A stretch of DNA of 56,920 nt, taken from the IMG/VR virus record IMGVR_UViG_3300045125_000053, positions 1 to 56,920 of that record, one strand, 5' to 3'. The DNA is from a virus (lineage: Duplodnaviria > Caudoviricetes). Below are positions 1,788 through 25,821 of the stretch, in pieces. Under the pieces are notes generated by a model. That model saw nothing but the letters and a program-made list of their open reading frames with translations. It ran no database searches and had not been told where the DNA came from. The stretch's first letter is position 1. Each line of letters starts with the position of its first letter. Both the position numbers and the translations under genes were made by a program.

Positions 1788-2550
1788 ATGTCCACAGCAT
1801 TAGCAAAATTAACAAGTTCAATGGCTTCAAAGCTTAACATTGAAGCGCTCTGCACAAGAATTAATGCAAACCTTAAAGGCGACTGCTTTTAAAGGCTCTG
1901 TATCAGATGCCCAAATGACAGCACTGATGCTGGTTGCACAACAGTACGGTTTAAACCCCTTCACCAAGGAAATATACGCTTTTCCTGACAAACAAAACGG
2001 CATAGTTCCTGTCGTTGGTGTAGACGGTTGGGCGCACATTATCAACGACCATCCTCAATTCGATGGTATGGACTTTGGGCAAGATGATGAGTCATGCACT
2101 TGTTCTATCTATCGCAAAGACCGTTCAAGACCAATAACTATTACCGAATACGCAAGCGAATGTAAGCGTAATTCTGGGCCTTGGCAATCACACCCCAAAA
2201 GAATGCTGCGCCACAAGGCAATGATTCAATGCGCTAGATTGGCTTTTGGTTATTCAGGAATTTATGACCCTGACGAGGCTGAGTCATTTATTGAAAAGAC
2301 TACTCCAATACGAAGTTAAAAGCGTCACAGACAAACAAGGCGATGCCTACCAGGAATATGAGGACGAAGCTTTGCCAAGGCTTGTTGATGCAGCTAACAC
2401 CAGCACAACAGCTTTAACAGATGCTTTCAAAGCAATTCAGACTTGCGACCACAAAAAACATTATGGACTAAGCACTCAGCAATGCTTAAACAATTAGCCG
2501 CTGACGCTGATTCAAATGTAATCGAGAGCGACCAAAATGCAGCAGCGTAG
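1788..2550 (+). CDS. bet: Phage recombination protein Bet (lambda Red-beta single-strand annealing protein), with indels
   Basis: MSTALAKL..., TLKATAFKG, QYGLNPFTKEIYAFPDKQNGIVPVVGVDGW and PWQSHPKRMLRHKAMIQCARLAFG closely match lambda Bet motifs. Confidence 0.93.
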
Positions 2551-3148
2551 CCCTGAATGGTATGCGGCTAGAGTCGGTAAATTAACAGCGTCACGCATGA
2601 ATGACGCTGTTGATGTACTCAAAAAAGGCGGCGAATCTCAGGCTCGTATTAATTACCGGCTTGAATTAGCTACCGAGAGACTAACCGGGGTACTTATCGA
2701 AAAATACACTAACAGCGCAATGCAGTGGGGCATTGATAATGAACCTAAAGCTAGAGAAGAATTCGAGCTTTTTAACGGGTGAATTTGTAACTGAGGTTGG
2801 TTTTTATGACCACCCAGTAATAAACGGTACTGGCGCTAGTCCTGATGGATTAGTAGGTGTTAACGGTCTTATTGAAATCAAATGCCCAACGTCACAGACT
2901 CATCTGCAATGGGTTTTAGATAATAAAGTTCCAGAAAAGCATGTTAATCAAATGCTTTGGCAAATGGCTTGTACTGGGCGTAAGTATTGCCATTTTGTTT
3001 CATTTGATCCACGAATGCCGCCTGAGCTTCAACTATTTCACAAAGTATTTGAGCCGAAAGACTCGGAAATACCAGATTTAGAACAAAGAGCAATCGACTT
3101 TTTATCCAACCGTTGATGAATTGATTGCAAACATTTATAGCAACATAA
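2537..3148 (+). CDS. exo: YqaJ/lambda-exonuclease family protein, with indels
   Basis: QRSPEWYAARVGKLTAS, AMQWGIDNEP, GASPDGLV, IEIKCP, QMLWQMACTGR; lies next to bet. Confidence 0.92.
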
Positions 3149-3160
3149 AAGGTTAAAACA

Positions 3161-3568
3161 ATGAGCAATGTATTTAGTTGTATAGGTAATGTCGGGCGTG
3201 ATGCTGGAAGTTAAAGCATTACTAAGTGGGCAGTCAGTTTTAAATGTCACTATCGGCACATCGACAGGTTTTGGAGATAAACAAAAACGATTTGGGTGCG
3301 CGTAGCAGTTTGGGGAAAAAGAGCAGAAGGCCAGCTTGTTAATTACTTGAAAAAAGGTCAGCAGGTTTTTGTCTCTGGTGAATTATCGCAGCAGGAATAT
3401 CAAGGCAGCGATGGCAGCACCAAAACGGCTTTAGAGCTTAATGCTTATGTTTTAGATTTAGTGGGCAAGCGTAGTGATAATCCACTGGCAGCGCAATCGA
3501 ATAACGCAGCATCAGCAGAGCAGAATGACAATTTTGCTGATTTTGGCGGCGATGAAATCCCTTTTTGA
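3161..3568 (+). CDS. ssb: Single-stranded DNA-binding protein, with indels
   Basis: IGNVGRDA, VAVWGKRAE, YLKKGQQVFVSGEL, acidic tail ending DEIPF. Confidence 0.92.
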
Positions 3569-3620
3569 TGTGATAGGATAAGACAAGACTCGACGACACA
3601 GAATTTCACAAGACACGACA
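3566..3620 (+). repeat. Pentamer-periodic array (11 units, N-GAY-N) upstream of the RAMP-like gene
   Basis: TGATG TGATA GGATA AGACA AGACT CGACG ACACA GAATT TCACA AGACA CGACA; central A invariant. Confidence 0.8.
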
Positions 3621-3645
3621 ACCTTAATAAAACAGGAAATCCACA

Positions 3646-4203
3646 ATGAAAACAGCAATAGTAAAAATAATAGGATTAAGCCCTTTAGCTCAAGGGAAAT
3701 TCGTACAAGCAGAAAAACTCCCCAAAGAATTGCACAAAGATTATGAAGCGAGAACATGGCGCGAAAAGATGCACTACGACAAAGACAATATTGTATTTAT
3801 TCCATGTTTTGCTCTTAAAAACTGCCTTGCTGAAGCAGCAAAATTTCTATCAATTCAAGTGCCAGGTAAAGGTAAAGCTACTTATACAAAGCATTTTGAA
3901 GCTGGAACTATGGTAGTGCAAAACATGAGTCTTGGAATTAATAAAGATGAGGTTAATCCACAAATAATGTTTGTACCATCTGACGGAGTTAGAGGCAGTA
4001 ATAAACGTGTGGAGAAATACTTTCCGGTAATGCCGGAATGGGGTGGTATTGCTGAATATATGATTTTAGATGAAACCATTACGGAAGATGTTTTCATCAA
4101 CCACTTGAAACAGGCTGGTCAATTTATCGGTTTGGGTTCGCTTAGACCCAGAAATAATGGTTTTTTTGGTAGGTTTGATGTGAAGTTGGTTAGTTTTAAA
4201 TGA
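3646..4203 (+). CDS. Stand-alone Cas7/RAMP-like putative RNA-binding protein
   Basis: N-terminal strand VKIIGLSPL, FIPCFALKNCLAEAA (compare RAMP xIPGSSLKGxLR) and C-terminal Gly loop GQFIGLGSLRPRNNGFFGRFDV; intact 185 aa with RBS AGGA. Confidence 0.75.
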   Translation: MKTAIVKIIGLSPLAQGKFVQAEKLPKELHKDYEARTWREKMHYDKDNIVFIPCFALKNCLAEAAKFLSIQVPGKGKATYTKHFEAGTMVVQNMSLGINKDEVNPQIMFVPSDGVRGSNKRVEKYFPVMPEWGGIAEYMILDETITEDVFINHLKQAGQFIGLGSLRPRNNGFFGRFDVKLVSFK

Positions 4204-4305
4204 CATGACCGGACTTGACTTAATGTGACTAGACAGGACATGACTAGAAATGACCGGACAAGATGGGATCAGACCACAAGCGACATTACTAGACTAAACA
4301 AGACA
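4201..4305 (+). repeat. Pentamer-periodic array (21 units, GAY-NN), candidate guide-like ncRNA
   Basis: TGACA TGACC GGACT TGACT TAATG TGACT AGACA GGACA TGACT AGAAA TGACC GGACA AGATG GGATC AGACC ACAAG CGACA TTACT AGACT AAACA AGACA, then a T-rich tract. Confidence 0.92.
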
Positions 4306-4336
4306 AGTTTTTATTTAATTGAATTGGATTAAAACA

Positions 4337-4819
4337 ATGAATAAGCCAATAGGTGCAACAAGTTTAGATGCAAAAGTATTATCAGAAAAATTGCTTGAAT
4401 TATCTGCTGGTGATTCGATTAGTTATTCAGATATTAATGAATTAATTGGTAGAGATATCCAAAAAAATAGACATATTTTAGCGACAGCCAGAACAATTGC
4501 TAGGCGTGAAAAAGGTTATTTATTTGACTGCATTAGTAATGTTGGCGTTAAAAGGTTATCTGATTCTGAAATAGTTGAAATAGAAAGTGTTAGGCCATTT
4601 TCAAGAATCAAAAGCGCAGTTAAAAAAGGTTTGCAAAATGTCCAATGCGCTAAAGATATTAGCAATACTGACCGGATTAAACAGAATGCAACTATTTCTA
4701 TGTTAGGCACTATCGCTTTATTCACGAAATCGAATGCTGGTGAGATAGTTAGACATAAAACAGAATTCGCTCCAATAGCAACGTCGAAAGTATTGGAATT
4801 GTTTAAACAATGTACTTAA
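4337..4819 (+). CDS. Hypothetical protein with a winged-helix-like N-terminus
   Basis: GDSISYSDINELIGRDIQKNRHILATARTIARREKGYLFDCISNVGVKRL fits a helix-helix-helix plus beta-wing pattern; ATG at 4337. Confidence 0.6.
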   Translation: MNKPIGATSLDAKVLSEKLLELSAGDSISYSDINELIGRDIQKNRHILATARTIARREKGYLFDCISNVGVKRLSDSEIVEIESVRPFSRIKSAVKKGLQNVQCAKDISNTDRIKQNATISMLGTIALFTKSNAGEIVRHKTEFAPIATSKVLELFKQCT

Positions 4820-5001
4820 TCCCCAACGCCCAAGTAGAACTAAGCAAAGCAATCGCCCAGGTTAAGAACCCTGGGCCAATGCTAACACCATCAACGCCTA
4901 TATGCGTTAAGTGCAAACAGCACAAACCCATATTAGGTTCAAAAAGATTTGTAAACAAACTTGGCAGACATAGATTTATCTGCAAGGAGTGTAAGCAATG
5001 A
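4810..5001 (+). CDS. Small zinc-ribbon protein
   Basis: CVKC...CKEC; overlaps neighbouring genes. Confidence 0.6.
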   Translation: MYLIPNAQVELSKAIAQVKNPGPMLTPSTPICVKCKQHKPILGSKRFVNKLGRHRFICKECKQ

Positions 5002-25100: not shown

Positions 25101-25378
25101 TACATCATTCCTTGTGCTGCCATTGGTGGCTTTTTAGCCGGTGCTTTCTCGCCTAAGCCAGCATTAAACATTTGATTCAGATAATCTTCTGAAGTATCGC
25201 TTAATAATTCACGCACTTTGTTTAAGGCTTCGTCCAAAGACTTGAAGGCTCTTTGTTCTTCAACACCGCCTTCCTCCATATTTTCTTGCGGATTCTCTTG
25301 GTCGTTTTGTTCAACGATAAAAGTACCATCGCCATTTGCGGTAATTGTAACGCTGACTTGATTAGTAGTTTCGTCCAT
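25100..25378 (-). CDS. Hypothetical acidic protein
   Basis: AAGGA RBS; MDETTNQVSVTITANGDGTFIVE. Confidence 0.65.
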   Translation of the reverse strand: MDETTNQVSVTITANGDGTFIVEQNDQENPQENMEEGGVEEQRAFKSLDEALNKVRELLSDTSEDYLNQMFNAGLGEKAPAKKPPMAAQGMM

Positions 25379-25821
25379 TATTTTTCCTTAGTTAGCACAA
25401 CATGTTGCCGGTGCTTTCTCGCCTAAGCCAGCATTAAACATTTGATTCAGATAATCTTCTGAAGTATCGCTTAATAATTCACGCACTTTGTTTAAGGCTT
25501 CGTCCAAAGACTTGAAGGCTCTTTGTTCTTCAACACCGCCTTCCTCCATATTTTCTTGCGGATTCTCTTGGTCGTTTTGTTCAACGATAAAAGTACCATC
25601 GCCATTAATAATTCACGCACTTTGTTTAAGGCTTCGTCCAAAGACTTGAAGGCTTTTTGTTCTTCAACACCGCCTTCCTCCATATTTTCTTGCGGATTCT
25701 CTTGGTCGTTTTGTTCAACGATAAAAGTACCATCGCCATTTGCGGTAATTGTAACGCTGACTTGATTAGTAGTTTCGTCCATTATTTTTTCCTTAGTTAG
25801 CACAACATGTTGCCGGTGCTT
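25137..25821. repeat. Nested tandem duplication (about 2.5 copies) of the 25100-25378 gene region
   Basis: Near-identical blocks ~25137-25406, ~25407-25605 and ~25606-25821; GCCGGTGCTT at the boundaries. Confidence 0.9.

Follow-up and report, generated by a model that had tools for sequence, protein, structure and literature searches.

A candidate vrRNA gene with GAC/NN repeats beside a Vipr homologue in an uncultured phage

What is the role of a tract of 21 five-nucleotide units, each made of a well-kept triplet and two variable bases, that starts inside the stop codon of a small phage gene and ends in a T-rich stretch? The tract lies at positions 4202-4306 (+) of IMG/VR virus record IMGVR_UViG_3300045125_000053 (Duplodnaviria; Caudoviricetes), of which positions 1 to 56,920 were analysed as one stretch, called the window below. 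VIPR (Viral Interference Programmable Repeat) is an RNA-guided silencer of DNA that resembles CRISPR and was first described in 2026 (10.64898/2026.04.26.720920). As that preprint describes it, a VIPR system comprises the RAMP protein Vipr, an accessory vap gene and vrRNAs of 9-16 YNNGG (GGY/NN) repeats with a 3' tail; one Vipr protomer per repeat sequesters the GGY, and pairing with double-stranded DNA is left to the NN bases, with one target base in three skipped (10.64898/2026.04.26.720920). The outcome is transcriptional silencing of competing phages and satellites (10.64898/2026.04.26.720920; 10.64898/2026.04.26.720927). We give a probability of roughly 0.8 to the reading that the tract is a vrRNA gene, belonging to a VIPR system that the phage encodes and whose GAC/NN repeat is non-canonical. 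This identity rests on the neighbouring Vipr homologue, on intergenic arrays found on the same strand across relatives, on an accessory gene and on a gene order of the SUSP1 type.

Two period-5 arrays around a Vipr homologue

Read in phase, the downstream array consists of the units GACAT GACCG GACTT GACTT AATGT GACTA GACAG GACAT GACTA GAAAT GACCG (units 1-11) and GACAA GATGG GATCA GACCA CAAGC GACAT TACTA GACTA AACAA GACAA (units 12-21). Fourteen triplets are GAC, two are GAT and one each is AAT, GAA, CAA, TAC and AAC; none of the 21 lacks the middle A. A sequence-only reading had placed the tract at 4201-4312, which is the array plus one preceding base and the trailing G and five Ts. Its 21 phased units, triplet counts and invariant middle A were all reproduced, and on recount the NN string (AT CG TT TT GT TA AG AT TA AT CG AA GG CA CA GC AT TA TA AA AA) was identical. 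As a control for chance we ran 30 first-order Markov simulations of the window: the best triplet count over 21 units at period 5 was 6 in 21 simulations, 5 in five and 7 in four, against 14 in the window itself. Tandem Repeats Finder (TRF) did not report the downstream array. A scan that allowed degenerate units found only two period-5 places in the 56.9 kb, both on the plus strand and flanking one and the same gene.

The second place is the upstream array (3567-3621, +; candidate vrRNA 1), with 11 period-5 units: GATGT GATAG GATAA GACAA GACTC GACGA CACAG AATTT CACAA GACAC GACAA. Here five triplets are GAC, three GAT, two CAC and one AAT, and again the middle A is kept throughout (11/11). On its sequence, this array would be a second, more degenerate vrRNA; the downstream array would be vrRNA 2, or possibly two vrRNAs end to end. 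Each array sets out from the second base of a TGA stop, which for the downstream array is that of the gene between the arrays and for the upstream array that of an SSB gene remnant, so that in both cases the stop codon provides the GA of the first unit. The upstream array ends 24 nt before the next start codon. Stops are present in five of the six frames of the downstream array, and the sole open one belongs to a 35-amino-acid open reading frame (ORF) at 4225-4332. The tract does not lie in a conserved reading frame.

The gene between the arrays (vipr, 3646-4203, +) encodes a 185-amino-acid Cas7-like RAMP protein with a C-terminal glycine-rich loop, GLGSLRPRNNGFFGRF. This protein is a Vipr homologue. 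It has no Pfam match and belongs to PHROG 4652, where its function is unannotated; its family is large, with 1668 proteins at E<=0.001 in a word-indexed search and 1036 among cluster representatives. The AF2 model, built on 25 relatives, has a pLDDT of 89.8 and obtained 141 Foldseek matches at E<=0.001, the best ones in the PDB being type VII Cas7 and type III Csm3/Cmr4 (E 1e-7 to 1e-5). When the family profile (A1) was searched against the PDB, it matched 36pp_D, the 'SUSP1 Vipr protein', through the half that holds thumb and G-loop (E 8.6e-10), and the runner-up reached only E 0.15. Alignment of A1 by hhalign to the Vipr of the SUSP1-type Felixounavirus tootiki gave a probability of 97.4% (E 1.3e-11, 169 columns) and paired residues 1-183 with residues 1-191 of the tootiki protein. 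The nearest homologue from a cultured phage is that of Pseudomonas phage LESphi2 (27% Vipr identity).

Behind the downstream array follows a vap-like accessory gene (4337-4819, +; 160 amino acids), which takes the place of the adjacent vap of a VIPR system, a gene whose product is predicted to bind DNA in several VIPR types. Its product has a winged-helix-like N-terminal fold and a helical C-terminal half (AF2 model, pLDDT 88.6); Foldseek retrieved nothing better than E 0.026, the weak matches being to ScpB and to winged-helix proteins of the GntR/FadR and OmpR type, and neither Pfam nor PHROG gave a match. An alignment of its family (A2) pairs with the gene after vipr in LESphi2 (probability 70%, E 4e-5), and not significantly with SUSP1-type vap (probability 8.6%). 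By tblastn, relatives of the 160-amino-acid protein stand beside vipr in 62 of 103 other loci and are missing from 41. Candidate vrRNA, vipr, candidate vrRNA and vap-like gene together fit in 1.3 kb.

Array grammar in 106 homologous loci

Related loci were obtained by alignment-based searches, single-protein searches having given none. Together with the window and LESphi2, 24 genome loci and 80 IMG/VR loci make up a set of 106, in which the genome and IMG/VR homologues are 45-73% identical. A script scored for each locus the triplet that recurs most at period 5, with three perfect units in a row as a strict seed. A dominant period-5 array was found in 87 of the 106 loci, in all 87 on the strand of the gene. 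The dominant triplet is GGC in 49 loci and GAC in 20 (window included), followed by CGC (6), CTC (5), GTC (3), GTT (2), CAC (1) and ATT (1). The remaining 19 loci failed the strict seed and were scored as 'none'; we read 13 of these by eye, and most carry degenerate arrays. No array lies downstream in the closest relative (L027, 73% identity), where the contig breaks off on the upstream side.

Altogether 230 arrays were located, 141 downstream of vipr, 89 upstream and none overlapping it. Downstream arrays of relatives mostly start -1 to +16 nt from the stop, and the gap from an upstream array to the start codon is mostly 22-36 nt; the window conforms to both patterns, and seven relatives likewise start their downstream array at -1. 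Among the 214 non-identical arrays the fixed positions are 81-100% conserved in every triplet class (90-96% in GGC, GAC and CGC), and the NN positions are near-uniform. For the GAC class (876 units) the frequencies of the three fixed bases are 0.95 for G, 0.96 for A and 0.94 for C. A single locus may hold as many as six arrays, and every one of them has an end motif of its own.

In this clade it is common for an array to reach 20-40 units. Unbroken runs of 32-40 units, far above the 9-16 repeats described for vrRNAs, which may be head-to-tail or 'staggered' vrRNAs, occur at L017:1533-1732, L078:2308-2477, L090:975-1134 and L091:2317-2476. In LESphi2 (OQ594955, L001:2560-2960) three GGC/NN arrays lie between a 'sigma factor' gene and P21_9, the unannotated Vipr homologue, and GGGCTG and then a hairpin close each of the three; this cultured phage from the cystic fibrosis lung thus has a VIPR locus that is annotated only as hypothetical proteins. 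A metagenome-assembled genome of Polyangiales (L018:2330-2530) carries GGC/NN arrays parted by stretches with tRNA T-arm-like GGTTCGAxTCC motifs.

The ends of the arrays show a pattern of their own. In the window the downstream array is followed by G, five Ts, A and three Ts, and the candidate 3' end or tail (4297-4316, +) reads AACAAGACAAG and then TTTTTATTT. Among the relatives' arrays, NN is AA in the last unit of 133 of 214 and in the penultimate unit of 113 of 214. Read by eye, many relatives' arrays, across several triplet classes, run into a T-rich stretch after a closing ...AAGACAAGG or xxxAAxxxAA. Because relatives' arrays tend to end in two AA units, units 20-21 of the downstream array (NN = AA, AA) are taken as a handle: judged from these array sequences, they probably form a constant element rather than part of the guide. 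A GACAAG also occurs internally, at units 12-13. A run of at least four Ts lies within 14 nt after the array in 55 of the 214, and the earlier proposal that the T-rich tract marks the RNA 3' end is plausible. The RNA of the downstream array is predicted to be unstructured. In the fold of 4202-4340 (minimum free energy -17.7 kcal/mol, z -1.36, with 22 of 200 shuffles folding equally well) the only clean stem-loop is a weak A-U hairpin (4307-4335, +), possibly a part of the tail.

We also compared Vipr residues with the triplet class. In SUSP1 Vipr, the G-loop residues D177 and W178 are described as contacting G1 and G2, and R179 as holding the pyrimidine (10.64898/2026.04.26.720927). In the A1 and hhalign alignments D177 and W178 align with S165 and L166 of the window's protein, R179 is kept as R167, and thumb residue R138 aligns with F126. 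Over 104 aligned homologues, columns 165 and 106 are the most informative on triplet class. With a middle base G, Arg-Phe at 165-166 and Glu106 are found in 54 of 54 loci; with a middle base A, neither Arg165 nor Glu106 is found in 17 of 21. Four GAC loci retain Arg/Glu. The window's Vipr has Ser165 and Gln106. Counted on the tree, the association comes down to four independent well-supported contrasts, of which two to three are concordant and none is opposite (p 0.25). Arg165/Glu106 as a specificity pair for the triplet is therefore a lead from sequence comparison that is not significant on independent pairs.

On the FastTree tree, triplet class needs 23 parsimony changes over eight classes ('none' loci excluded). 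GAC alone takes 12 changes, at least six of them forced by well-supported branches. Mean GC content is 0.48 for GAC loci against 0.57 for GGC loci. Tentatively, and we would rather bet against it than on it, the scaffold triplet could have been re-coded again and again within the clade (from GGC to GAC six times or more; also CGC, CTC, GTC, GTT, CAC and ATT), with the GAC of the window perhaps reached via loss of the coupled Arg165/Glu106, a pair placed where the G-loop touches the guanines in SUSP1; arrays of 20-40 units may, besides, be very long guides (at least 57 bp) or head-to-tail vrRNAs bounded by an in-phase GACAAGACAAG handle. If this were true, orthogonal scaffold codes would block the hijack of a phage's Vipr by the solo vrRNAs of a competitor, and they would supply a natural set of mutually insulated VIPR effectors.

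Proposed guide function, missing targets and rival explanations

On the VIPR reading, the array would be transcribed and bound by one Vipr protomer per 5-nt unit, as in the SUSP1 and Pseudomonas fulva systems. The GAC bases would be flipped into protein pockets and the NN bases displayed in a helical filament, where they would pair with double-stranded DNA with every third base skipped (NNx); the result would be silenced transcription of a competing phage, satellite or prophage. Going by the array comparison, the last two units with the G and the U-run (AACAAGACAAG-UUUUU) would serve as a constant 3' handle, leaving a guide of up to 19 units (57-bp footprint) or two shorter guides.

A search for DNA targets gave no support to the pairing of NN with DNA, and together with several other results it weighs against the VIPR reading. 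We searched with NNx strings, the sequence-only reading having proposed gapped matches as a check; the best NNx match within the window scores 24/42, and the shuffled strings average 24.9. A scan of the window with the NN strings of either array at skip 0-3, each set against 200 unit-order shuffles, brought out nothing above the shuffles but the arrays themselves (skip 3); self-targeting is likewise reported to be absent from VIPR. Exact 8-unit seeds in IMG/VR (units 1-8, 12-19, 5-12 and 9-16) gave 32, 12, 49 and 13 matches with chance-level extensions. The best full-length score among these 106 seed loci is 30/42 (L134, in an AT-rich stretch), followed by 29/42; all extensions stay below the 80% of the VIPR preprint, even with the 16 seeded bases included in the scores. 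A 9-unit seed (units 11-19) had four matches in the metagenome collection, the best at 26/42, and seed matches showed no enrichment for the codon or wobble register. Neither did a comparison of 194 arrays with 1.19 Mb of VIPR loci (skip 0-3) favour any skip rule, a database too small to count either way.

To the same side belong the results on the RNA and on the repeat itself. No SUSP1-like pseudoknot tail is visible after the array in the fold of 4202-4340; the tail is short, unlike the ~40-nt pseudoknot of SUSP1. Rfam gave no match in 3300-4900, and a consensus scan found no sigma-70-like promoter before either array (the two sigma-70-like sites in 3300-4900 are not near the arrays, and shuffles average 4.8). 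No RNA sequencing runs are listed as containing the stretch; two freshwater DNA runs contain a 0.07 share of its words. A triplet other than GAC stands in seven of the 21 units, the array exceeds the 9-16 repeats of type II vrRNAs, and the 1-nt-skip rule has been shown for GGY-type systems only (10.64898/2026.04.26.720920).

The proposal that the NN bases carry information, read with one skipped base, has thus held in part: it fits the NN guides and the 1-nt-skip rule published for VIPR as well as the near-uniform NN of relatives, and no target was found for it. The guide function of this array is inferred from homology and family membership. Outside the window, the clean 20-unit GAC array of another phage (L106) had zero and seven matches for two IMG/VR seeds. 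In the comparison of L106:2987-3086 with L218:729-754 (also L220-L224), nine handle-adjacent units of this array match the motif PAYAQTSVT of HK97-type prohead proteases. Six of the seven matches fall in this motif, on six IMG/VR contigs, in codon register with the skipped base on the wobble position, and they include one diverged homologue with different wobble bases. Units 1-9 of the L106 array are unmatched and the number of independent matches is about that expected by chance, which makes this a lead only.

Without a target, the arrays might also bind Vipr (the phage's own or a competitor's) as a decoy, sponge or decaying guide that currently has no DNA target, or the locus as a whole might be eroding. 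Solo vrRNAs that redirect a phage's Vipr have been described (10.64898/2026.10.15.759431), and units other than GAC (7/21 downstream, 6/11 upstream) as well as the frameshifted look of the adjoining SSB and YqaJ genes would suit such a state. We nevertheless consider it unlikely: vipr and vap are intact, the middle A is retained in 32 of 32 units, and the VIPR preprint, in its methods for type classification, describes internal degeneracy as a frequent trait of vrRNAs (10.64898/2026.04.26.720920). The missing target loses weight as well, given that competitors of an uncultured phage are probably absent from the databases searched.

Protein-binding sites of another kind are known from TRAP (trp RNA-binding attenuation protein), whose sites are GAG/UAG triplets with 2-3-nt spacers. 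Applied here, the arrays would be TRAP-like sites on the vipr mRNA, in its untranslated regions at either end (5' and 3'), serving autoregulation or attenuation, with NN as mere spacers. The triplet-plus-2-nt grammar, the location of the arrays exactly between stop and start codons of the operon and the failure to find a target all agree with this. It is nonetheless less probable still than a decoy, since the protein is homologous to Vipr, whose guide function has experimental proof, since loci hold up to six arrays with end motifs of their own, and since NN is near-uniform and lacks a spacer-like bias. Even fainter is the prospect of double-stranded DNA iterons, an origin or a partition site read by the downstream winged-helix-like protein. 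A period of 5 bp is half a helical turn, and the arrays lie in a replication and recombination block next to that winged-helix-like gene. Yet a duplex-DNA site has no need of an orientation, and in 87 of 87 loci the arrays are oriented as vipr; they also track vipr itself, vap being missing from 41 of 103 loci (tblastn). That the tract is a functionless slippage microsatellite or chance low-complexity sequence is hardly credible, short-period repeat though it is. Homogenisation is confined to three of the five positions, and chance would have to account for 14 of 21 triplets where 30 simulations gave at most 5-7. Homologous genes in 87 of 106 loci, drawn from many phyla, have arrays of the same grammar at their side; these loci, the NN statistics and the Markov simulations contradict this candidate. 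The earlier argument against a slippage microsatellite is borne out by the Vipr homologue next to the tract and by the 214 relatives' arrays, in which the triplet is kept and NN is near-uniform.

Genome context and comparison with known systems

The IMG/VR record is 73% complete by CheckV and encodes a terminase, a portal/adaptor and a major head protein, which makes the locus virus-borne. The terminase is 54% identical to those of F116/H66-like Pseudomonas phages and of a Bacillus phage; relatives of the capsid are metagenome proteins, no near-identical DNA was found in the phage collection, and no tRNAs were found in the window. In the replication and recombination block that holds the locus, a YqaJ-like exonuclease gene (2537-3116) breaks into two frames close to a run of five Ts at ~2775. 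The SSB gene (3130-3568) is in three pieces: the N-terminal part MSNVFSCIGNVGRDA, a middle part in another frame, and the last 90 amino acids from 3296. It thus changes frame twice, while the adjoining vipr and vap are intact. The frame breaks in SSB and YqaJ could be assembly indels, decay or programmed shifts. On the side of the structural genes (25201-25740) TRF reports a 134-bp repeat in four copies with 67% matches, unrelated to the VIPR locus.

As a class of RNA-guided DNA binders VIPR is only months old, and experiments on it have so far addressed the GGY type; the present locus offers a compact and clean example of the GAC type, from an uncultured phage of freshwater type. The 106 loci add as leads a candidate residue pair behind the choice of middle base, triplets that often switch between close relatives, and an AA-AA / AAGACAAGG / U-run handle that replaces the pseudoknot tail. 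If confirmed, these would aid in annotating vrRNAs beyond GGY and in choosing orthogonal Vipr/vrRNA pairs for programmable repression. As a rule for annotation, strand-specific period-5 arrays beside a ~185-amino-acid protein of PHROG 4652 point to VIPR loci.

Among known systems, class 1 CRISPR shares with this locus, through Cas7/Csm3, the RAMP fold, the glycine-rich loop and the thumb, and one protomer per repeat-length step of the guide. Its backbone has a period of 6 nt with one base flipped, whereas here the period is 5 nt with three bases sequestered. TRF listed no CRISPR array over the whole window and no cas operon lies in the stretch examined; the sole RAMP gene identified stands with one accessory gene, which is not the make-up of a class 1 CRISPR-Cas system with its cas genes and repeat-spacer array of 25-40-nt repeats. 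TRAP sites resemble the arrays in their triplet-plus-spacer grammar, their ~5-nt period and their untranslated RNA; the protein fold is unrelated and the spacers are without information.

The type II VIPR systems of Escherichia phage SUSP1 and of a Pseudomonas fulva prophage (10.64898/2026.04.26.720920; 10.64898/2026.04.26.720927) come closer, with a homologous Vipr, 5-nt units of three fixed and two variable bases, and a phage as the carrier. The order of the SUSP1 type, checked on tootiki, is GGTNN array, vipr, small gene and GGTNN array, the same order as here. They differ in having a GGY triplet in 9-16 (or 10-12) units, as opposed to GAC in 21 units, and SUSP1 in its ~40-nt pseudoknot tail, in place of which the window has the short AACAAGACAAG and a U-run. 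Measured against VIPR as first described, the locus has the Vipr protein, a minimal RAMP of RRM core, glycine-rich loop and thumb, and intergenic same-strand 5-nt repeats with a fixed triplet and variable NN; it departs from the canonical GGY/NN (YNNGG) repeat, the triplet being GAC with its middle A in 21 of 21 units. The alternative repeats listed with that description are NNNGG, YNNNG and NNNNG (10.64898/2026.04.26.720920).

The nearest counterpart is a later preprint, which describes GAC/NN, CAC/NN, WGT/NN and TGH/NN arrays beside Vipr-like folds and counts 21 of 99 period-5 clusters as non-canonical (10.64898/2026.10.21.760802). Its arrays share with ours the fixed GAC, the variable NN, the period of 5 and a Vipr-like neighbour, with 10 repeats there as compared with 21 and 11 units here (10.64898/2026.10.21.760802). 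Among the sources cited here GAC/NN is named only in that preprint, so that the locus fits a broadened rather than the canonical definition of VIPR. The GAC/NN variant is already in print through this report of October 2026, which presents it without experiments, and the locus described here is a further example.

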